Source of the DNA: Calditrichaceae bacterium
GTDB lineage: Bacteria; Calditrichota; Calditrichia; Calditrichales; JBFXGD01
Direction: 5' to 3'
Length of the DNA stretch: 64,000 bases
Assembly (NCBI GenBank): GCA_050173015.1
Contig: JBFXLE010000007.1
Location: forward strand, 1 to 64,000
The translations under genes were made by a program, and so were the position numbers. Positions within the stretch are counted from its first letter, which is position 1; the number at the start of each line of letters is the position of its first letter. This document shows, one piece after another, positions 367 to 58,444 of this stretch. Under the pieces are notes generated by a model that saw nothing but the letters and a program-made list of their open reading frames with translations, was not told where the DNA came from and did no database searches.

Positions 367-1119
367 TTATCTAAAATATTCAACAAAATACAAGCGGATT
401 TCCCTGCTGGAATAGGGACGGTAATCCTGATTTTCCAAAATGTTCTTCCAAAGAAAATCAATATATAGTTTTTTCGCGAAGGACCATTTTACTCCGGCAT
501 TTAAATAGCCTTTTCCTGATCCAATACTATTGTCTTCGTTATCATTTATTGCTAAATCATATTCCCCGAAAATACTTAATTCATCATTGACGCTTTTCTC
601 AAACCCGAAGAATCCGTTGATATCCTTATCGCCGTCTTCATCTTCGAAACTGTAGTTTAGGCCGCCATGAAGGGCAAACACACCAAGAAAACGATAACTT
701 TTGCTAAATGTGGCAAATATGCCTCTTGATTTTTCAGTATAACGGCTCAGGGAATCTATGTAAGCCCCATTGCCCTGATTATCATACCCTATACTCACCG
801 CGGGAAAATTTAATTGCTCATCAAACAACCTGTAACGAATATTCACCCCTACCTGTGGATTCCAGTCAATCTCTCCCGCTCCGATTATATTCTTGCCTCC
901 GTAGGAAATTCCCATCATCAGTCGGTTCGTCAGACCAACTTCAATATTACCAAGTATTCCCCCCTCAGGATAGGCTCTCAATCCCGCCATAAAACTTCCC
1001 CGGTCCAGAGTTGCCGAAGTCGGACAATCAATAATAAAAATTGATTGAGCAGGTATAATTTCCTGAGTTTCTGCCGATGATACCAATAGAATCAGAAACA
1101 ATACAATAAACTTTTTCAT
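367..1119 (-). CDS. Exported hypothetical protein, probable outer-membrane beta-barrel (YjbH-like)
   Basis: Signal peptide MKKFIVLFLILLVSSAETQ from the ATG at 1119, then alternating amphipathic beta-strands. The ORF-track start at 1161 falls inside the predicted promoter. Confidence 0.65.
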   Translation of the reverse strand: MKKFIVLFLILLVSSAETQEIIPAQSIFIIDCPTSATLDRGSFMAGLRAYPEGGILGNIEVGLTNRLMMGISYGGKNIIGAGEIDWNPQVGVNIRYRLFDEQLNFPAVSIGYDNQGNGAYIDSLSRYTEKSRGIFATFSKSYRFLGVFALHGGLNYSFEDEDGDKDINGFFGFEKSVNDELSIFGEYDLAINDNEDNSIGSGKGYLNAGVKWSFAKKLYIDFLWKNILENQDYRPYSSREIRLYFVEYFR

Positions 1120-1151
1120 AGTCGGTTTCCTGTCAGTAAGTGGAACAAAAT

Positions 1152-1181
1152 AAGATAACATTCATACAAGATTATTGTCAA
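1152..1181 (-). promoter_or_regulatory. sigma70-type promoter for the 367..1119 gene
   Basis: TTGACA (1181-1176), 18-nt spacer, extended -10 TGnTATCTT (hexamer at 1157-1152). Confidence 0.55.
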
Positions 1182-1250
1182 GGTAATTACAGATGAAATT
1201 GACATTTTGCGGGTCCTGTGGAATTAACCGCCCTGGTCGATCGTTAGACC

Positions 1251-1279
1251 TTGACAGCCATTGGCGATTATCCTATATT
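1251..1279 (+). promoter_or_regulatory. sigma70-type promoter for clpC
   Basis: TTGACA-N17-TATATT about 50 nt upstream of the ATG at 1329. Confidence 0.65.
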
Positions 1280-1328
1280 TTGAAATGATGGGAACTCAAA
1301 AACCTAATATTGTAAGGAATTTTTAATA

Positions 1329-3794
1329 ATGGGAAATAATTTTACGAGCCGGGTGCAGAAAGTCATTCGATATTCTAAAGAAGAGGCTATGCGACTTGGA
1401 CATGATTATATAGGTACCGAACATCTGACTTTGGGAGTTATCAAGGAGGGTGAAGGAATCGCGATTAAAATATTGCAGAATCTTGGCTGCGATCTTAATA
1501 AACTGAAGAAGGCAATAGAGGATGCCACTGCCCCATCCGGCGGAACGATGACAATTGGCAATCTTCCCTTGTCAAAAAGAGCGGAAAAAGCTCTGAAGAT
1601 GACCTACATTGAGGCAAAGAATTTCAATAATGATGTAATAGGCACGGAACATTTACTGCTTTCCATCTTAAAAGAAAAAGACAGCCTTGCAGCACAGATT
1701 TTACTCACTTTTAATGTGGATTACGCGGCCTGTTACAATGAGTTAGAAAACATTTTATCAGGAAAGCCAACCATGCCGCAGCCAAAACAGGCACCCAAGA
1801 AGACCAAAACACCGGCTCTTGACCATTTCGGTCGTGATCTGACTCAACTGGCCATTGACGGAAAATTGGATCCCATTATTGGAAGACAAAATGAGATTCA
1901 GCGGGTTGCCCAGATCCTCAGCCGACGCAAGAAAAATAATCCCGTGCTTATAGGGGAACCGGGAGTCGGGAAAACAGCCATCGCCGAGGGGCTCGCTCTC
2001 AGAATCATTCAGAAAAAAGTGTCGCGTGTTTTACATAATAAACGTGTTGTGGCTCTTGACATGGGATCAATTGTCGCCGGTACAAAATATCGTGGTCAGT
2101 TCGAAGAACGTATGAAAGCAATTATGACAGAGTTGGAAAAAGCCGAGGATGTCATTCTTTTTATAGACGAATTGCACACCATTGTCGGCGCCGGTGGCGC
2201 ATCAGGCTCACTGGACGCGTCAAATATGTTCAAACCCGCCCTCGCCAGAGGTGAATTACAATGTATCGGTGCAACTACTCTTGATGAATACCGCATGTAT
2301 ATTGAGAAAGATGGCGCCCTTGAAAGACGTTTTCAAAAAGTAATGGTTGAACCTACAACCGCGGATGAGACACTCGAAATATTACGTTCTGTTAAAGACC
2401 GATACGAGAAACATCATCATGTGGAATATAATGATAATGCCATTGATTCAATTGTTCAGGCCGCGGACCGATATATTACAGATAAACACTTCCCTGATAA
2501 GGCGATCGATGTATTGGATGAAGCCGGCTCAAGAGTTCATATTGCCAATATCGTGGTTCCGAAGGAGATTCTTGATCTTGAAAGTGATATAGAGCGAATT
2601 CGCGCCGAGAAGGAATCCCTGGCAAAATTGCAGGATTTCGAGCGCGCTGCAAAACTTCGTGACAAAGAAAGAAATCTAACAGACAAGCTTGATGAAGCCC
2701 GTCTGCGTTGGGAAGATGCGGAAGAAAGCAAAATAGCCACTGTCACCGAGGAGGATGTCGCAGCCGTTGTCGCCATGATGACCGGAATCCCGACTCACCG
2801 CATCGCGATGAGTGAATCAAAAAAACTGCTTAAAATGGGTGAAACTCTTAAGAAAAAAATCATCGGTCAGGATGATGCCATTGAAAATATCGCAAAAGCA
2901 ATACGCAGAGCAAGAGCGGGTTTAAAAGATCCTTCCCGCCCTATCGGCTCTTTTATCTTTCTTGGGCCAACCGGAGTCGGGAAAACATATCTTGCTAAAT
3001 TACTGGCGGAATATCTTTTCGAAAACTCCAACGCGCTGGTCAGAATAGACATGAGTGAGTATATGGAGAAATTCAACGTTTCAAGGCTTGTGGGCTCACC
3101 TCCAGGATATGTTGGTTATGAAGAAGGCGGCCTTCTGACCGAAAAGATTCGCCGGCATCCTTATTCTGTAATCCTTTTGGATGAAATTGAAAAAGCTCAT
3201 CCAGACGTATTTAATATTTTGCTTCAGGTAATGGATGAAGGGCAGTTAACCGATTCACTAGGCCATAAAGTAGATTTTAAAAATACTATATTGATTATGA
3301 CATCCAACATTGGTGTTAAACACCTTAACAATATTTCAAGTTATGGATTTGCCAATACTGCCAATGAAAATAAATTTGATCTTATGAAAAACAAGATTTC
3401 CGATGAAATGAAAAAATCTTTCAATCCGGAATTTCTTAACCGCATAGATGATGTGGTAATATTCAGGCAGCTTGAAACAGATGAAGCTGTTAAAATAGTC
3501 GAAATCACATTAAACGAGGTCATGCATAAATTAAAAGAACGCAATATTGAATTTCAGCTGACCGACGGCGCAAAGAAATTTATTGCTGATAAAGGATTTG
3601 ACCCTTTATATGGAGCCCGGCCTTTAAAACGCGCCATCCAAAGATTCGTGGAGAATCCCATCGCGGACGAAATACTCAAAGGCACTTTTACCGATGGCAG
3701 TGTTATTCAAATTAAGCTAAAAAATAAAAATGAATTAAGTTTTTCTGAGATTGATCGCAAAGAAGGACAAACCAAAGATATAGAAGTCGATTAA
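1329..3794 (+). CDS. clpC: ATP-dependent Clp protease ATP-binding subunit ClpC
   Basis: Clp N-repeats (GTEHL x2), two AAA+ modules ([16 protein letters not shown]), UVR-like middle domain ([11 protein letters not shown]), SYGF ClpP-docking-type loop. Confidence 0.93.
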
Positions 3795-31116: not shown

Positions 31117-32025
31117 TTATTTACTCTGTCCGTCCGAATGCGCTAATTCCTTGTTCAGGAAGGAACTATCCACATCCATCACACAGCGGAATCCGAGGAA
31201 ATCAAATTGACAGGTCGGATCAAACCAGGTCCGGTATGTCACTCTCAAATAATCACCGCTGCGATTCCACGATGATCCTCGGATAACCTTATATCGTCCC
31301 TGATCCGCGCCTTTAGGATTTTGTTGATTAGCAGTATTAAAATATTTTTCTTCATACCAGTCAGCGCACCATTCAGTTACATTGCCAATCATATCATATA
31401 ATCCGAATCCATTCGGCACGAATGAGCCAACCGGCGCTGAATTTATATACCCGTCATAATACCCTTCTACCACGGGATAGAAAAATTTGACTTTTTTCAT
31501 CGTTTCATCAGCCACATTTCCAAAATTTCGGCGATATTGACTTGTTTTATCAGAAGTATCTTCCCGAATATTCCCCGCTGCCCGGGCGGCGAACTCCCAC
31601 TCAGCTTCCGTAGGCAGTCTTTTACCCACCCACTTTGCGTAATCATTCGCCTGTCCCCAGGTCACATTTACAACCGGGTGATTCTCCTTATTCCATTCCG
31701 GCTGGACCGGCATTTTGCTGCCTGTGGCAATACAATATTCTCTGAATTGCGAAACAGTAACTTCATGGGTATCCATATAAAAAGGATTAAGATATACAGA
31801 ATGCACCGGGGATTCGTTACTTTTTTCAGTGCTCCCCATCTCAAACAGCCCTCCGGGAATATAGGACATTCCCTCCACCGCTTGAGATTCTCTCCCGCGG
31901 TTAGTACCGGTTATTTTTTCTTTCTCCGGATTATGCTCGTTCATTCTAAACAGGTCAAGGCTGACTGTGCAGGAAACCAGCATTAAAATTGGTAAAAACA
32001 GGATTGAAATCAACAAACGTTTCAT
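31117..32025 (-). CDS. Formylglycine-generating-enzyme (FGE-sulfatase/SUMF1) domain lipoprotein
   Basis: Lipobox LVSC; IPGGLFEMGS, HPVVNVTW, RLPTEAEWE, NGFGLYDMIGNV, RGSSW, GFRC. Confidence 0.88.
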   Translation of the reverse strand: MKRLLISILFLPILMLVSCTVSLDLFRMNEHNPEKEKITGTNRGRESQAVEGMSYIPGGLFEMGSTEKSNESPVHSVYLNPFYMDTHEVTVSQFREYCIATGSKMPVQPEWNKENHPVVNVTWGQANDYAKWVGKRLPTEAEWEFAARAAGNIREDTSDKTSQYRRNFGNVADETMKKVKFFYPVVEGYYDGYINSAPVGSFVPNGFGLYDMIGNVTEWCADWYEEKYFNTANQQNPKGADQGRYKVIRGSSWNRSGDYLRVTYRTWFDPTCQFDFLGFRCVMDVDSSFLNKELAHSDGQSK

Positions 32026-32312
32026 ATTTAAAAATATTCAGTTAATGATGATTATATTGACAAACAAACATTATTCAGTATCGTCAGAAATATATGCCAT
32101 CTTTATTAATTTCACAAGAAAAACATCATAATCAACGCTAATTTGATTTTTAATTTTGTTCGGAGAGGACCCAAAGTGCTGTTGAAGATAGGTTTGTTTT
32201 TCACTTAAAATGATGCATTTTGTGACAGAATCGGAAAGTTTTTCACCACGCGGGAACAGAGTCAGGAGAGAACAGAAAGAGTATTCTGTTTTTTAAAAAT
32301 TCAATAAACAAT

Positions 32313-32355
32313 AAAAAAGGGGATTTGTTACCCGGCGGGTGAGTAACAAATCCCC
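32313..32355 (-). terminator. Strong terminator hairpin in the cas6 3' UTR
   Basis: 13-bp perfect stem GGGGATTTGTTAC/GTAACAAATCCCC followed by T6 on the minus strand. Confidence 0.8.
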
Positions 32356-32386
32356 CAAAGTAGGGAATAAGAACTAAAATACCTTA

Positions 32387-33235
32387 TTAATTATGTATGG
32401 TAGCATTAATTGGGGCCATCGTTCTGTTTTTTCGACCTCTGGAAGGATTGACCGTTTCCAGCATGCCAAAACCAAGATCGTTCAGCTGTCCAAGACCTAA
32501 ATCATATATAAGCTGCAAAACTTCAGGTTCTGCTTTTATATGAATTGGCGCCAGTATCCCCCGAATTTGTTCAGGAGCATCTTTTGAATTTTCAAGGGTA
32601 ATCACTTTTGTGATTCTATTGTTCTTTCTTCGGATATATTCTCTGTCGAATTCAAGATTTAATCGAATATTATTCTTCTTTTGTTTTTTTATCAGGTTGT
32701 ATTTATAAATGAGATCTTTTTCAATATAATCAAGATATTCATCTTCTCCCGGCAGCAAGTATCCACCGTTGAATTGATACATTGCCCTGTGCCTTTTGTT
32801 AAAGCGCTGTCGATATACCGCTACCGGCGACATGCATGTAAATTGCGCTTCCGCTTCCTTAAATTCGGGCGAAGGTATGAATTCAATTCCCCCGACATCA
32901 AACCAGGCGTTTTTAATTTTAATTTTTCCTCTGTCCCTTAATTCTTTGGCGATGAGCCCAAGAAATTGATAGTATGGCGAAGAAATGTACCAGTAAAATT
33001 CACTTGACAAAATGCCGATCTGAAAATCCTTAATCTCGCGTTCCGGTATGATTAACTGTGAGAAGGTATACATATCGAATTTTGCATGCACTCCATCGAT
33101 CCCCGGCAGCAAAGAGTTTAGGTACCGGCGATACTCATATGTGAGCTGATTTATCAGTTTTACAAGATAGTAGTTTGTATTAATTGGCAAAAAGGTTCTG
33201 GCCCGCTTGTTCTTGAACGTGATTTTAATTCGCAT
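32387..33235 (-). CDS. cas6: Stand-alone Cas6-family (RAMP) protein, likely catalytically degenerate
   Basis: MRIKI...LPIN, YTFSQL, ISSP, TCMSPV, DLIYKY and the C-terminal G-loop YDLGLGQLNDLGFGM. ATG at 33235 preferred over GTG at 33253. No array or other cas gene in the window. Confidence 0.88.
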   Translation of the reverse strand: MRIKITFKNKRARTFLPINTNYYLVKLINQLTYEYRRYLNSLLPGIDGVHAKFDMYTFSQLIIPEREIKDFQIGILSSEFYWYISSPYYQFLGLIAKELRDRGKIKIKNAWFDVGGIEFIPSPEFKEAEAQFTCMSPVAVYRQRFNKRHRAMYQFNGGYLLPGEDEYLDYIEKDLIYKYNLIKKQKKNNIRLNLEFDREYIRRKNNRITKVITLENSKDAPEQIRGILAPIHIKAEPEVLQLIYDLGLGQLNDLGFGMLETVNPSRGRKNRTMAPINATIHN

Positions 33236-33285
33236 AAATCTCTCTCGTTTCACTGAATATTAAAATAATTTCATATGAGTAATAT

Positions 33286-33302
33286 TGCAACGAATGTGCC
33301 AA
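33286..33302 (-). promoter_or_regulatory. sigma54 (-24/-12) promoter of cas6
   Basis: Minus strand TTGGCAC-ATTCG-TTGCA, an exact match to TGGCAC-N5-TTGCA, about 50 nt upstream of the start. Confidence 0.8.
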
Positions 33303-33329: not shown

Positions 33330-33342
33330 CAATATATTGATT
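33330..33342 (-). promoter_or_regulatory. Putative IHF site upstream of the cas6 sigma54 promoter
   Basis: AATCAATATATTG matches WATCAANNNNTTR. Confidence 0.5.
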
Positions 33343-33384
33343 ATTAACGAATTATGCCAGAGACAAACGAGGTAAGAAGAAATT

Positions 33385-33438
33385 AAAAAGTGGGGATATT
33401 ATCCCCACCACCTAAACATACAAGGGATTTTTTACCTT
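33385..33438. promoter_or_regulatory. Palindromes between mrp and cas6: mrp terminator and/or enhancer-binding-protein sites
   Basis: Perfect GTGGGGAT-att-ATCCCCAC (33390-33408) with a T-run on the minus strand, plus imperfect AAGGGA-ttttt-TACCTT (33422-33438). Confidence 0.5.
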
Positions 33439-34482
33439 CTATTTGCTTAATAATTGTTTTTTTACATTCCTGGCGATATCTACAAACGCCTTTGTCTGCG
33501 GACTTTCGCTATCGCCCGCGACGATGGGCACACCCTGATCCCCCCCGGCGCGGATAGCCGCATCTATTGGTATTTCTCCCAACAATGGAGTGTCGAGTTT
33601 TTCACATTCCTTTTTCACACCGCCATAAGAAAAGATTTCAGTCCTTTCCCCACAATTGGAACACACAAAATAACTCATATTTTCGATGATTCCGAGGATC
33701 GGCACATTCACTTTCCTGAACATTTGCACGCCCTTAACAGCATCAAGCAATGCGACATCCTGAGGCGTTGATACGATTACTGCCCCATCGAGCGCGACGG
33801 ACTGAGAAAGGGTTAATTGCGCATCGCCCGTTCCGGGAGGCATATCGAATAACATTATATCCAGCTCCGGCCAGGCAACATCATTCATTAGCTGCTGAAG
33901 TGCTCGGTGAACCAGCGCGCCTCGCCAGATAACAGCATCATTATTATCCACTAAGAAGCCAAGCGACATCAAATGAACACCAAACTTCTCGATTGGATAA
34001 ATCTTAGTTCCGTCATAGTATGGCTGCTCTTCCACCCCGAACATGAGCGGGATGCTCGGACCGTAGATGTCCGCGTCAAGTAAGCCGACCGATAAACCTT
34101 CTTTGGCAAGAGCAACAGCCAGATTCACCGCCACCGTTGATTTCCCGACTCCACCCTTACCGCTGGCGACTGCTACTTTATACTTTACGGATGTCAGGAA
34201 CGTTGATTTTTGCTGCGGGGAAGTATGAAATTGAGGCGGTTCCTGGCTTTCCAGAAGAACAGTAACCGAATGGTCTTTATATTTATCGGAAAAAACCTTC
34301 TTAATCTCAGATTCAATTTCCTGACCTACCGTTGTATCCTTTGATTTTATAAGTAATTTAATCGTGATCAGGTTATCTTTAATTTCAACCGCGTTAATAA
34401 TCCCAAAAGACACAATATCTCTGCTGAATCCCGGATATTTAATCTCTTTAAGAGTTTCAACAACCATATCTTTATTTACCAT
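33439..34482 (-). CDS. apbC: Mrp/ApbC/NBP35 iron-sulfur cluster carrier ATPase
   Basis: N-terminal DUF59-like domain, SGKGGVGKST, DADIYGPS, DMPPGTGD, ENMSYFVCSNC. Confidence 0.93.
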   Translation of the reverse strand: MVNKDMVVETLKEIKYPGFSRDIVSFGIINAVEIKDNLITIKLLIKSKDTTVGQEIESEIKKVFSDKYKDHSVTVLLESQEPPQFHTSPQQKSTFLTSVKYKVAVASGKGGVGKSTVAVNLAVALAKEGLSVGLLDADIYGPSIPLMFGVEEQPYYDGTKIYPIEKFGVHLMSLGFLVDNNDAVIWRGALVHRALQQLMNDVAWPELDIMLFDMPPGTGDAQLTLSQSVALDGAVIVSTPQDVALLDAVKGVQMFRKVNVPILGIIENMSYFVCSNCGERTEIFSYGGVKKECEKLDTPLLGEIPIDAAIRAGGDQGVPIVAGDSESPQTKAFVDIARNVKKQLLSK

Positions 34483-34698: not shown

Positions 34699-35361
34699 TT
34701 AGATTACCACTTCCAGGTCCAAAACCGAATCAGTTTCAAGGTCTAGTGAAACCACTTTGACCTTATCAAGTTCTATATCATTGATTAATGTCAGTTCAAC
34801 TTTGAAATTTTTATGCTCAACATCCTTTGATACTAATTTACCCATACCATTGATGACACCCGCTTTTTCTTTATCGTAATAACTTATTAAAATGGATTCG
34901 TTTAAATCCAGTGCATCAAGAATTTGCAATAATTCATCAACGTTTTTCTTCTCATCGATTATAAGCTCGTCGAGATCCTCCTCGATACTCATGATATCGC
35001 CGTCTTTATATTGAAAATCTATGGTGCCGCCTCCGCCCTTCAGGTAGATGAGCCGATTATCCATATCTTGCTTTATACTTCGTTCGACGTTGACAACCCT
35101 GCCCGTAAAGTACTCATTCCGAATATCCAGAATCTGAACCGTAATCGGAGATTCTTCAGGAGTCCCATCGTATTCAACTCTTCTGATGTTAACTTTTTTG
35201 TTTCTGCCGATCTTCTCAACAAGTTCTCTAACCTCATCCGGAGGCAGAGCGCCGGGGCGGTGTTTGAGATGTTTTTTTGATTTAAATAGCTTAATAAAGA
35301 AACGTGCATTACGGTCACTGTCAAAAAACCAGTTTCTTTCCTCTGATTTATATGTATTCAT
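34699..35361 (-). CDS. Hypothetical cytoplasmic protein
   Basis: 220-aa ORF with a strong SD (AAAGGAGGG); no recognised motif. Confidence 0.7.
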   Translation of the reverse strand: MNTYKSEERNWFFDSDRNARFFIKLFKSKKHLKHRPGALPPDEVRELVEKIGRNKKVNIRRVEYDGTPEESPITVQILDIRNEYFTGRVVNVERSIKQDMDNRLIYLKGGGGTIDFQYKDGDIMSIEEDLDELIIDEKKNVDELLQILDALDLNESILISYYDKEKAGVINGMGKLVSKDVEHKNFKVELTLINDIELDKVKVVSLDLETDSVLDLEVVI

Positions 35362-56496: not shown

Positions 56497-57734
56497 TTTA
56501 CAAACGGATTCTCAGGATTTTTATTTTTTTACTGATCATCACCGGCCAGATACAGGCGCAGGCAAGTCTTGACCAATTGATTGAAGAGGCTCTGCACGCG
56601 AATCCGGATATTAACCGGGTTAAAAATGAACTTAATGCTCGGAAATTCAACATCGGACCCGCCGGCAGTCTGCCGGATCCCGAAATAACATTTGGCCTGA
56701 ATAACCTGCCTACGGATACTTATGCTTTCAATCAGGAACCCATGACTCAAAAAACCATCGGTCTGATGCAAATGATTCCCTTTTGGGGAAAGTTGAACAT
56801 GAAACAGGATATGGCTGAAATTGACGCGCTGATTGGAGCGGAACGTTATGATGAATCCAAACTGCAAATTATAAGGCTCGTAAAAAACACCTATTACGAT
56901 CTCTACTATATCTCAAAAGCCATTGAGATAACAGATGAGAACAGGCAGCTTTTGGAAAATGTACTTCAGGTGGCAACAATTAAATATCAGTCGGGCAAGG
57001 GTATCCAGCGGGATCTTCTGCAAAGTCAGCTGGAACTGCTAAAACTGGATGAAATGCTTGAAATTCTGAAGCAGCAGGAATCGGTACTGAAAGCGCGGCT
57101 GAATATTTTATTAGACCGCGCCCCCGATCGACCGATTGAAAATCCTCAGACGCTCATAACCGGCAGATTCGATAAAAGTCTGGATCAGATCATGGAACTT
57201 TCGATTCAGAATAATCCCATGTTAAAGATAAAAGATATGACTACTGAAAAAACATCTGTCGCGGAGAAGTTAAAAAGAAGAGAATATTGGCCGGATATCT
57301 CCCTTGCCGCCATGTACGGGCAGCGTGAGAATCGGCCCGACTTTTTATCGGCAACTGTTTCCCTCAGCATACCGATCTACGCCCGTCGAAAGCAAAGTCA
57401 AAAAGTTCAGGAGGCAGCCGCCCTGAATGAAAGCGCTAAATTCGATTATGAAGACACAAAGAATGACCTTCTGTATCAGATAAAAGTCATGTATGATGAT
57501 TCTCAAAAAAATCACAGGCTTCTGGAGCTCTATGAGAATCAGATGATACCGCAATCCCGACAGGCCTATGAATCGGCTATTTCAGCTTACACAAACGACC
57601 GCATCGATTATACCTCAATGATCGATAACCTGATGACCGTCTACAAGTATCAGCTGGCGCGTGAAAATGTTTTGTCCGCCTATAATAAAAACATCGCGGA
57701 TCTTGAATTTTTGACGGGAGAAGGGGTGAAGTAG
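56493..57734 (+). CDS. TolC-family outer membrane efflux protein (CusC-like)
   Basis: Signal peptide, LPDP, Q.IPFWGK, WPD, SIPIY repeats of the OEP family; upstream of MFP and RND genes. Confidence 0.9.
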   Translation: MIYKRILRIFIFLLIITGQIQAQASLDQLIEEALHANPDINRVKNELNARKFNIGPAGSLPDPEITFGLNNLPTDTYAFNQEPMTQKTIGLMQMIPFWGKLNMKQDMAEIDALIGAERYDESKLQIIRLVKNTYYDLYYISKAIEITDENRQLLENVLQVATIKYQSGKGIQRDLLQSQLELLKLDEMLEILKQQESVLKARLNILLDRAPDRPIENPQTLITGRFDKSLDQIMELSIQNNPMLKIKDMTTEKTSVAEKLKRREYWPDISLAAMYGQRENRPDFLSATVSLSIPIYARRKQSQKVQEAAALNESAKFDYEDTKNDLLYQIKVMYDDSQKNHRLLELYENQMIPQSRQAYESAISAYTNDRIDYTSMIDNLMTVYKYQLARENVLSAYNKNIADLEFLTGEGVK

Positions 57735-57797
57735 GAAGTAGGAAGTAGGAAGTAAGAAGTAAGAAGTAAGAAGTAGGAAGTAGGAAGTAGGAAGTAA
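57728..57797 (+). repeat. Heptamer tandem repeat (GAAGTAR)x10
   Basis: GAAGTAG x3, GAAGTAA x3, GAAGTAG x3, GAAGTAA. The first unit supplies the TolC stop codon. More units near 57867 and at 58110-58137. Confidence 0.95.
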
Positions 57798-57836
57798 GAT
57801 TTAAGAGCGTTAAGAGAAAAGAGTTAAGAGTTAAGA

Positions 57837-57861
57837 GTAGGGGCACGATGCTCGTGCCCTA
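57837..57861 (+). repeat. REP-like palindrome (GTAG family)
   Basis: GTAG-GGGCACGA-tgc-TCGTGCCC-TA. Confidence 0.65.
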
Positions 57862-57865
57862 AGTT

Positions 57866-58330
57866 AGAAGTAGGAAGTAAGAATTAGTCTGAACTTTGAT
57901 TAAAATGATTAAATGATGAGCATGATTTAAGCACTTAATTCCGCGTACTCCCCGTAGGTCATCCTGGAAGGATCTTCTGCTTGATTGGGAAGAGGCGGAA
58001 AGTGAGAAAAAAGATAAAAGAAAAAAAATTAAGAATGGTCTGAACCGTGACGCGTCCGCCTCTGGTGGATTAATATAATTAAGAAATTGGAAATCAGAGT
58101 TCAGACAAAGAAGTAGGAAGTAAGAAGTAGGAAGTAAGAATTAGTCTGAACTTTGATTAAAATGATTAAATGATGAGCATGATTTAAGCACTTAATTCCG
58201 CGTACTCCCCGTAGGTCATCCTGGAAGGATCTTCTGCTTGCTTGGGAAGAGGCGGAAAGTGAGAAAAAAGATAAAAGAAAAAAAATTAAGAATGGTCTGA
58301 ACCGGGACGTGTCCGCCTCTGGTGGATTAA
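57866..58330 (+). repeat. 208-bp direct repeat, two copies (57866-58073 and 58123-58330), with inverted-repeat boundaries
   Basis: Offset of 257 nt and 3 substitutions seen by eye. GTCTGAACTTTGATT (57887, 58144) is inverted relative to AATCAGAGTTCAGA (58092, 58392). Confidence 0.93.
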
Positions 58331-58444
58331 AATGATTTAATGATTTGGATGATTAAGAAATTGGATATCAGGGTAATCATCTGATCACACAAATCAGAGT
58401 TCAGATAATGAAAATGATTGAAGCAAAAATCAAAGGAGTAAGGC

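Follow-up and report, generated by a model that had tools for sequence, protein, structure and literature searches.

What a Cas6 homologue does among housekeeping genes is the question raised by the 64,000-nucleotide stretch of DNA analyzed here (the window; positions 1 to 64,000 of contig JBFXLE010000007.1 of a Calditrichaceae bacterium, assembly GCA_050173015.1). The gene in question, termed Cas6h in this study, is located immediately downstream of mrp. We consider, with a probability of roughly 0.6, that Cas6h is a domesticated Cas6 without catalytic activity, with an RNA-binding role outside CRISPR. Domestication fits because the active site is lost with the scaffold kept, because the gene behaves as a core gene and independently of cas genes, and because it has a private promoter class and a private RNA element. 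The family and fold of Cas6h, its residue losses, its synteny, the purifying selection on it, its independence from cas loci, and the conservation of a promoter motif and of a 3' RNA element are directly supported. The gene is located as follows.

32387..33235, minus strand: coding sequence of Cas6h, a solo Cas6 homologue of 282 amino acids, defined by its TIGR01877 match, the starts of its orthologues and an AlphaFold2 (AF2) model.

The open reading frame (ORF) extends over 32387..33253 on the minus strand, and encodes 288 residues when counted from a GTG codon and 282 residues when counted from the ATG codon at 33235. This ATG is taken as the start of Cas6h, because all 17 orthologues that were extracted begin at the equivalent ATG, with the sequence MRIK; the gene boundaries given in an earlier note on this DNA, which was made from the sequence alone, are therefore right. 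The same note assigned the protein to the Cas6 family, and this assignment is borne out both by profile searches and by structure prediction. Cas6h matches NCBIfam TIGR01877 (cas_cas6) with 107 bits (cut-off 58.65) and Pfam Cas_Cas6_C (PF01881) with 82.7 bits (cut-off 23), and scores 25.4 bits with the Cas6_I-A N-terminal profile, slightly below its cut-off of 27. The glycine-rich loop (G-loop) GLGQLNDLGFG is found at G247-G257, and G247, G249, G255 and G257 are conserved. When a profile of the orthologues is compared with the proteins of the PDB, it matches 5yi6 with 78 bits, PH0350 (3qjp/3qjj) with 73.9 bits, 3ufc with 71.4 bits and Pyrococcus furiosus Cas6 (3pkm/3i4h) with 49 bits. The AF2 model, for which 96 sequences were used as input, has a predicted local distance difference test score (pLDDT) of 91.3 and a predicted template modelling score (pTM) of 0.89. 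The predicted structure consists of two tandem RRM/ferredoxin-like domains and a C-terminal glycine-rich loop, which is the architecture of Cas6, and Foldseek gives target-normalised template modelling (TM) scores of 0.81-0.85 to 5yi6, 3qjj, 3ufc and 3pkm, with an E value of 7e-20 to 5yi6.

The active site of P. furiosus Cas6 (PfuCas6) is formed by the triad Tyr31/His46/Lys52, and according to PMC3652601 the Y31A and H46A proteins are inactive and the activity of the K52A protein is 40-fold reduced. The corresponding columns were examined in an alignment with 153 relatives, which was built from P0001, every sixth of 56 close hits, the profile-search hits P0061-P0208 and four homologues added to them; only rows of 225 to 310 residues were kept. 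The Tyr column is occupied by Tyr in 102 of these relatives, the His column by His in 99 and the Lys column by Lys or Arg in 118; the full triad is present in 95, and none of the three residues in 33. In Cas6h the three columns are occupied by Asn29, Asn40 and Asp54. The earlier note had read them by eye as Asn, Pro and Asp, which is correct for the Tyr and Lys positions but not for the His position. All Calditrichota rows lack the triad residues entirely, except for two outlying rows with Lys or Arg at the Lys column. The G-loop likewise lacks its usual basic residue, as the same note had claimed: column 251 is Lys or Arg in 71 of the 95 relatives with a full triad, and in none of the 14 rows of the Cas6h clade, where it is always Leu, Phe or Tyr. 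The suggestion that the His and Lys of the nearby GVHAKF sequence compensate for these losses does not hold, because this His/Lys pair is not conserved; the orthologue from the same genus has GERPKF instead, and no His is invariant across the 17 orthologues. Other positions that are conserved across the family, namely S59, P137, K178, D197, Y200, K210, P230 and the glycines of the G-loop, are kept in Cas6h, so that only the active site is affected by the loss. Judged from this alignment, Cas6h has lost the catalytic triad and the basic G-loop residue and has kept the scaffold.

In a quick maximum-likelihood tree of these proteins, which was rooted at the midpoint and evaluated by the SH-like approximate likelihood ratio test (SH-aLRT) rather than by bootstrap, the Calditrichota clade joins a Marinimicrobia clade and a few other sequences in a group of 28 rows with an SH-aLRT support of 91. 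All three triad residues are missing from 22 rows of this group, and the His from 5 further rows. Loss of the triad is seen elsewhere in the tree as well, outside this group.

Comparison with the known Cas6 proteins shows what is shared and what is not. Canonical Cas6 (TIGR01877/PF01881; PfuCas6, 3PKM/3I4H; 5YI6) resembles Cas6h in the above-cut-off profile match, in the tandem RRM/ferredoxin-like fold with its G-loop (TM scores of 0.81-0.83) and in most family-wide conserved positions. In contrast, Cas6h lacks equivalents of Tyr31, His46 and Lys52 and the Lys or Arg of the G-loop, and it is located outside CRISPR-cas loci, being vertically inherited at a fixed housekeeping position. The closest precedents are PfuCas6nc (3UFC) and PH0350 (3QJJ/3QJL/3QJP), the Pyrococcus non-catalytic paralogues, which are among the best matches in both sequence and fold (TM scores of 0.83-0.85). 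3UFC is called non-catalytic in PMC3652601. In the profile-search alignment PH0350 also lacks the residues at the three triad columns, and the catalytic residues of Cas6h are likewise replaced; the title of the 3QJJ entry refers to one RAMP protein that binds different RNA substrates. These paralogues are archaeal and have been studied with CRISPR repeat RNA, whereas Cas6h is bacterial, belongs to the core genes of its whole clade and adjoins mrp; it has its own sigma54-type promoter motif and a 3' RNA element dedicated to it, and occurs in genomes in which no cas genes are detected. Sulfolobus solfataricus Cas6 (SsoCas6; Sso1437) lacks the canonical His and Tyr yet is active; it keeps the catalytic Lys51 and uses Lys25, Lys28 and Arg231 (PMC3652601). 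It differs from Cas6h, in which the Lys column is Asp or Asn, and it serves CRISPR arrays. The Cas6 described in PMC12102369 is reported to act as a regulator rather than only as a maturase, but it is not a Cas6 that lacks the triad and has a fixed place among housekeeping genes.

Whether Cas6h is a stray gene or a resident of this lineage is answered by its distribution. Among 41 related genomes, 23 contain an orthologue (39-95% identical): both genomes of its own family and 21 of the 26 genomes of the sister family, against none of the 10 genomes of another family of the order; phylum-wide, Cas6h is found in 24 of 86 genomes. Seventeen of the 22 orthologous loci other than its own were fetched with approximately 10 kb on each side, the other five being located on contigs that are short or close to where a contig ends. 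In all 17 fetched loci, the gene directly upstream of Cas6h, on the same strand, is mrp. An orthologue from a third family (genome G049, 43% identical) keeps the order RecN-hyp220-Mrp-Cas6h, and with it the adjacency to mrp, which the earlier note had proposed to check, is found in 18 of 18 loci. With the type I-B proteins of the host genome (Cas8b, Cas7, Cas5, Cas3, Cas1, Cas2 and Cas4) as queries, none of the 17 loci gave a match within approximately 10 kb. The identities of both neighbours named in that note, mrp and a gene for an FGE-domain protein, are supported by family matches (ParA/NUBPL, 339 bits; FGE-sulfatase, 188.5 bits). They are located in the window as follows.

33439..34482, minus strand: mrp/apbC, encoding an Fe-S cluster carrier ATPase; always found directly upstream of Cas6h and used as a synteny anchor only, with no functional link to Cas6h implied.
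31117-32025: gene for a protein with an FGE-sulfatase domain (188.5 bits), the downstream neighbour of Cas6h.

Between recN and mrp lies an ORF of 220 residues, hyp220 (34699-35361 of the window, minus strand), which belongs to no Pfam or NCBIfam family, is 56-96% identical in the relatives and is syntenic with recN.

The constancy of the mrp neighbour, together with the presence of an S8 protease gene downstream of Cas6h in 11 of the 17 fetched loci and the loss of the catalytic residues, might suggest that Cas6h is a protein with a Cas6 fold and a role unrelated to RNA, for example a partner of Mrp or of the S8 protease, or a structural protein. We regard this as very unlikely. The RecN-hyp220 block and the S8 protease gene shift sides or are missing in some loci, so that the link to mrp alone is invariant, and remote homologues from Marinimicrobia stand in other neighbourhoods without mrp. 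Cas6h has a terminator of its own, and a terminator of mrp and a separate promoter motif are located between mrp and Cas6h; because of these three features it is not obviously co-transcribed with either neighbour. The G-loop glycines, K178, D197, Y200 and K210 are, moreover, kept as they are across the RNA-binding Cas6 proteins.

The absence of cas neighbours and the loss of catalytic residues are also what a functionless, decaying remnant of a lost CRISPR-cas locus would show. However, all 17 extracted orthologues are intact and of full length, and the ratio of nonsynonymous to synonymous substitution rates (dN/dS), calculated by the Nei-Gojobori method, is 0.029, 0.033 and 0.034 for Cas6h in the three pairs with finite dS (0.22, 0.74 and 1.8, the last near saturation). 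In the comparison of genomes G000 and G001 it is 0.033 for Cas6h, 0.037 for Mrp, 0.031 for hyp220, 0.069 for RecN and 0.111 for the S8 protease; the value for the FGE gene was not used, because its ungapped alignment was not in register. At least 14 genera share the position of the gene, its promoter motif and its 3' element. Decay is thus effectively excluded, in line with the earlier note. Sporadic occurrence and neutral evolution of the orthologues, which that note had named as evidence against its proposal, are not what is observed: the orthologues are clade-wide, and their dN/dS of approximately 0.03 is at the level of mrp. Cas6h diverges in step with RecN and Mrp: the Pearson coefficients of the pairwise protein distances are 0.96 with RecN (78 pairs) and 0.75 with Mrp (153 pairs), and Mrp against RecN has a Spearman coefficient of 0.77. 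These values serve as a description only, because the pairs are not independent. Cas6h is a core gene that one Calditrichota lineage inherits vertically and keeps at a fixed position directly downstream of mrp.

One further locus touches on this distribution. A contig labelled as a Caldisericaceae metagenome-assembled genome (MAG) carries an orthologue of Cas6h (53% identical) followed by the same S8 protease gene (56% identical), and is probably a mis-binned Calditrichota contig.

If Cas6h is not decaying, it has to be asked whether it serves CRISPR after all, from a distance. The earlier note described it as an orphan. No CRISPR array is present in the 64-kb window, and whole-genome searches with Cas1, TIGR01877, PF01881 and PF10040 returned nothing besides Cas6h on this contig, other cas families not having been searched in the window; but the genome as a whole is not free of CRISPR, since a k-mer scan of the 54-contig assembly detected five arrays, which are accompanied by three cas loci on other contigs (C17, C27, C32 and C38). 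On contig C27, a type I-B operon, cas8b-cas7-cas5-cas3-cas1-cas2-cas4, stands between two arrays whose repeats terminate in the classical ATTGAAAC handle. This operon showed no cas6 of the TIGR01877 or PF10040 type, and the same was true of genomes G001, G010 and G016, so that Cas6h could have been a trans-acting Cas6 for a cas6-less I-B locus. This was dropped as the main explanation, because a Cas6b is found at the C27 locus and at those of G001, G016 and G010. The C27 gene (C27:41244-41978, approximately 300 nucleotides from array 1) surfaced in a tblastn search with an unannotated ORF of the G001 locus that ends in a G-loop, and matches both domains of Cas6b (PF17955+PF17262), Cas6b_C with 115.8 bits and Cas6b_N with 78.2 bits. 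Cas6b is thus present at the I-B loci of G001, G010 and G016, and in G040 as well, and G032 has a triad-bearing TIGR01877 cas6 directly beside cas8b. The arrays on C17 and C38, which are type III-like, are accompanied by cas1, cas2, Csm6 and a PF10040 Cas6, and the array on C32 belongs to a Cas9 system (TIGR01865, 696 bits). Each CRISPR system of the host genome has a Cas6b, a Cas6 or Cas9, and none is visibly short of a maturase.

The occurrence of cas genes in the relatives bears on the same question. Cas1 is present in 17 of the 23 genomes with Cas6h and in 8 of the 18 genomes without it, and is missing from the other 6 Cas6h genomes, five of which were searched for more cas families. In these five, no Cas3 core scored above its cut-off, neither Cas2 nor Cas7 (TIGR01595) was found in any, Cas8b and Cas6b were absent, and type III RAMPs were detected in one (G008). 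The remaining four (G006, G014, G018 and G027; 100, 95, 96 and 89% complete) contain Cas6h and none of Cas1, Cas2, Cas3, type III RAMP, Cas7, Cas8b and Cas6b. Orthologues are thus present in genomes apparently without CRISPR-cas, as the earlier note had thought worth checking, although these four are draft bins and the result refers to seven cas families.

A CRISPR-related role in trans, either in an atypical, His-less maturation of CRISPR RNA (crRNA) or as a Cas6nc-like competitor or regulator of the I-B or type III systems that binds repeats and leaves them uncut, nevertheless has points in its favour. Besides the five arrays, the ATTGAAAC ends of the I-B repeats and the frequency of Cas1, cas8b of the TM1802 type is found in 6 of the 23 Cas6h genomes and in none of the 18 others, a difference that is confounded with taxonomy. 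The nearest solved relatives include PH0350 and 3ufc, the latter being the non-catalytic PfuCas6nc, and His-less Cas6 enzymes can be active (PMC3652601); a type III-associated Cas6 is reported to regulate a I-B system negatively (PMC12102369), and, as stated in the 2025 classification, most type III systems use Cas6 supplied in trans (PMC12669027). This role is however judged unlikely, since the I-B loci of G000, G001, G010, G016 and G032 have their own Cas6b or triad-bearing cas6, the fragmentary G031 alone showing none, and the type III-like locus has its PF10040 Cas6; the distribution of Cas6h follows taxonomy and not CRISPR content; the gene persists with a dN/dS of 0.03 in the four genomes without detectable cas genes; and four active-site positions have been lost together.

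The earlier note had attributed to Cas6h its own promoter and terminator. Both terminators, that of Cas6h and that of mrp, are real hairpins followed by a T-run, but the promoter is another matter: matches of the sigma70 type are not above chance (6 against 5.3 in shuffles), and the element that is conserved upstream of Cas6h is of the sigma54 type. The elements of the upstream region are listed below.

33286..33301, minus strand: sigma54-type promoter motif TGGCACATTCGTTGCA (-24 GG, -12 GC), 66 nucleotides upstream of the Cas6h ATG.
33424..33436, minus strand: upstream palindrome 1, GGTAAAAAATCCC (GGGAAATATTCCC in the majority of relatives), immediately following the mrp stop codon.
33389..33409, minus strand: upstream palindrome 2, GGGATAATATCCC (33393-33405), within the mrp terminator hairpin of 9 pairs followed by a T-run.

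The sequence TGGCAY-N5-TTG is present in all 18 orthologue upstream regions, 48-70 nucleotides before the ATG, and the -12 element is TTGT rather than TTGC in most relatives. TGGCACATTCGTTGCA corresponds to a textbook sigma54 -24/-12 element, the consensus of which is TGGCAC-N5-TTGCA. The genome contains rpoN (TIGR02395, 421.7 bits; C25:9085-10521). No RNA run that covers this locus was found among the public sequencing runs. Nineteen of the 23 genome-wide matches to TGGCAY-N5-TTGYW are located where no reading frame is open. Downstream of such sites are genes for ClpB (1345 bits; site at C9:89074), DnaK (1049 bits; C18:57736), two Hsp20-like proteins (C11:68948 and C12:39822) and pyruvate:ferredoxin oxidoreductase (PFOR; C5:146342), and also three short ORFs that look by eye, without a family search, like response-regulator receivers. 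This arrangement suggests that the organism uses sigma54-type promoters for its heat-shock chaperones, and the motif looks like a real promoter class that covers them. A further sequence, TCTGGCATAATT-N3-TAAT(A)ATCAAT, was noticed by eye in the upstream regions of both Cas6h (approximately 33335-33362 of the window, minus strand) and clpB (C9, approximately 88960-88995), roughly 50-100 nucleotides before the sigma54-like motif.

The palindromes lie approximately 90-140 nucleotides upstream, between the mrp stop codon and the sigma54-type motif, and are candidate activator-binding sites. The strict form GGGA-N5-TCCC occurs in at least one copy in 16 of the 18 upstream regions and in two copies, 31-34 nucleotides apart, in 8. 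As a regulatory motif of the whole genome it was rejected: 67 copies are found against approximately 31 expected, and among the sigma54-like sites that of Cas6h is the only one with a copy within 160 nucleotides upstream.

At the other end of the gene, the following element is conserved.

32310..32389, minus strand: conserved 3' RNA element, a C/U-rich stretch of approximately 30 nucleotides followed by a hairpin and a U-run, which doubles as the Cas6h terminator.

The C/U-rich single-stranded stretch, with the consensus GGGTTTATTGCTTCTTTCC, is located downstream of the stop codon in every aligned locus. The hairpin (32318-32356) has 15-16 base pairs and a conserved loop, YCCCRCCG, and is followed by the U-run; compensatory changes are seen in all 15 predicted pairs. 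A covariance model of the element matches exactly once per genome, in each case immediately behind Cas6h, in 22 of the 23 Cas6h genomes and in none of the 18 genomes without Cas6h. Four of these matches (G016, G026, G029 and G038) are outside the training set, and the element stays with Cas6h where the downstream gene differs. Rfam contains no family for the element or for the upstream region, the best match being to the L10 leader with an E value of 0.18, far under the gathering score. Further copies that might form a regulon were not found among the 112-150 candidates scored per genome, apart from one match in G006 with an E value of 0.5. A resemblance to CRISPR repeats was also considered and rejected. 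A single 9-mer, GGGTTTATT, is common to the consensus of the element and to the reverse strand of the type II repeat, and is judged to be a chance match, because type II systems use no Cas6 and because the element of the window itself deviates at this position.

As a separate observation, the Cas6h frame of G000 and G001 is approximately 15-18 codons longer (32387-32440 of the window, minus strand) and runs over sequence that is non-coding in other genera. These genera have a conserved GGCCTC...CATAAATAAAA block there, just upstream of the 3' element, which is possibly a promoter or the 5' part of the RNA.

These signals allow a mechanism to be proposed for a domesticated Cas6h. Cas6h would be made from an activator-dependent promoter of the sigma54 type that belongs to the class of the heat-shock chaperones, and would bind a non-CRISPR RNA by sequence or structure, with little or no cleavage. 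The best candidate for its partner would be the single-copy C/U-rich-plus-hairpin element in its own 3' untranslated region (UTR); binding to this element could autoregulate Cas6h, stabilise the element or release it as a small RNA. RNA binding, the absence of cleavage, sigma54 dependence, induction by stress and the identity of the RNA partner are what we infer for Cas6h. Even if Cas6h binds RNA independently of CRISPR, the choice of the 3' element as the partner is tentative, and the odds are against it. Improbable, and put forward as a speculation, is a version in which Cas6h and the 3' element form a CRISPR-independent ribonucleoprotein of one protein and one RNA, switched on by a sigma54 activator at the same time as the heat-shock chaperones. 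In CRISPR systems, Cas6e and Cas6f remain bound to the 3' hairpin of the crRNA. In the ribonucleoprotein, the non-cutting Cas6h would similarly hold a small RNA derived from the 3' UTR by its hairpin, and the C/U-rich stretch of approximately 30 nucleotides, which resembles an anti-Shine-Dalgarno sequence, would be offered to target mRNAs. As for the proposal of the earlier note that Cas6h is a Cas6 repurposed as a hairpin-specific RNA-binding regulator, the part that stands is that Cas6h shows no decay and is unlike a CRISPR accessory in its behaviour; RNA binding, hairpin specificity and a regulatory role are conjectural.

Several points weigh against a domesticated, CRISPR-independent RNA binder. 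The four genomes that appear to be free of CRISPR are metagenome bins of 260-400 contigs, in which cas families rather than arrays were searched, and CRISPR-cas islands are often lost from such bins; one of them, G018, also contains another, weakly Cas6-like ORF. Because 17 of the 23 Cas6h genomes have Cas1, Cas6h may play a side role related to CRISPR. Genome-wide, the 23 matches to TGGCAY-N5-TTGYW compare with approximately 17 expected from base composition, so that this loose pattern is no more frequent than composition predicts, and the case for a sigma54-type promoter rests on conservation and intergenic placement; among the sigma54-like sites of the genome, the palindromes are found upstream of Cas6h only. 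Covariation would be expected in a terminator stem anyway, and the co-occurrence of the 3' element with Cas6h is not independent evidence of an interaction, because the two are physically linked. The searches with the RNA model scored 112-150 of approximately 1000-3000 candidate sites per genome, and G010 has Cas6h without the element. Finally, R66, K178 and K210 are invariant in the Cas6h clade (17 orthologues), and loss of the triad is no proof of inactivity, because SsoCas6 cleaves without a His, through basic residues (PMC3652601).

If a domesticated Cas6h is confirmed, it would show clearly how a CRISPR protein was co-opted into the everyday RNA biology of the cell, and it would be a naturally occurring RNA binder that recognises sequence without cutting. 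In Cas6h, a Cas6 has become a core gene of a bacterial lineage; the catalytic residues are gone, and the gene has gained what looks like a promoter of the stress type and a structured RNA element of its own. No published account of an mrp-linked or core-genome Cas6 was returned by full-text literature searches, though supplementary alignments or tables of PMC3652601 and of the classification papers might list solo Cas6 genes. In the pipeline of the 2025 classification, as described in PMC12669027, hits of Cas profiles outside CRISPR-cas islands are treated as false positives. The proposal is directly testable, because one relative, G003, has a closed single-contig genome.

Solo Cas6 may be more widespread than Calditrichota. 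Homologues without the triad and approximately 30% identical are found on three contigs of Marinimicrobia MAGs (L073, L074 and L076) and on one contig of a Bacillota MAG (L075), and all have the motif YTFSQL in common. No close sigma54-like motif, no mrp neighbour and no comparable 3' element were found at these Marinimicrobia and Bacillota homologues. The triad-less solo relatives from Marinimicrobia are a hint that CRISPR-free Cas6 may be a wider, overlooked class. The genes that surround the four homologues are not cas genes: a tRNA gene and genes for an ECF sigma factor, metal-resistance proteins and QRPTase; for FeoB and alanine racemase; and for a cation-efflux protein and a CMD protein.

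A few features of the genome were observed beside these results. The CRISPR-cas locus of contig C27 (C27:41244-62000) is unusual in its layout and contains, in this order, Cas6b, array 1, four small ORFs of approximately 95-100 residues, ZorA- and ZorB-like genes with a family-less ORF of 641 residues, the I-B operon and array 2, so that a Zorya-like defence module is located inside it. The type III-like accessory region at C17:1-14600 comprises cas2, cas1, an ORF of 479 residues with a weak similarity to DNA polymerase I (E value approximately 2e-6), a TPR protein gene, Csm6, a TM1812-like gene, a family-less ORF of 371 residues and the PF10040 Cas6; its repeat recurs on contig C38, and effector genes were not located at C17. 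Tandem units of approximately 100 nucleotides, each with a hairpin of the CCCCGAAGGGG type, are found at C5:164266-164826 and are not a CRISPR array. In the window itself, at 57714-58337, approximately 10 copies of a GAAGTAG heptamer and 1.9 copies of a 257-nucleotide unit with 97% identity are present.

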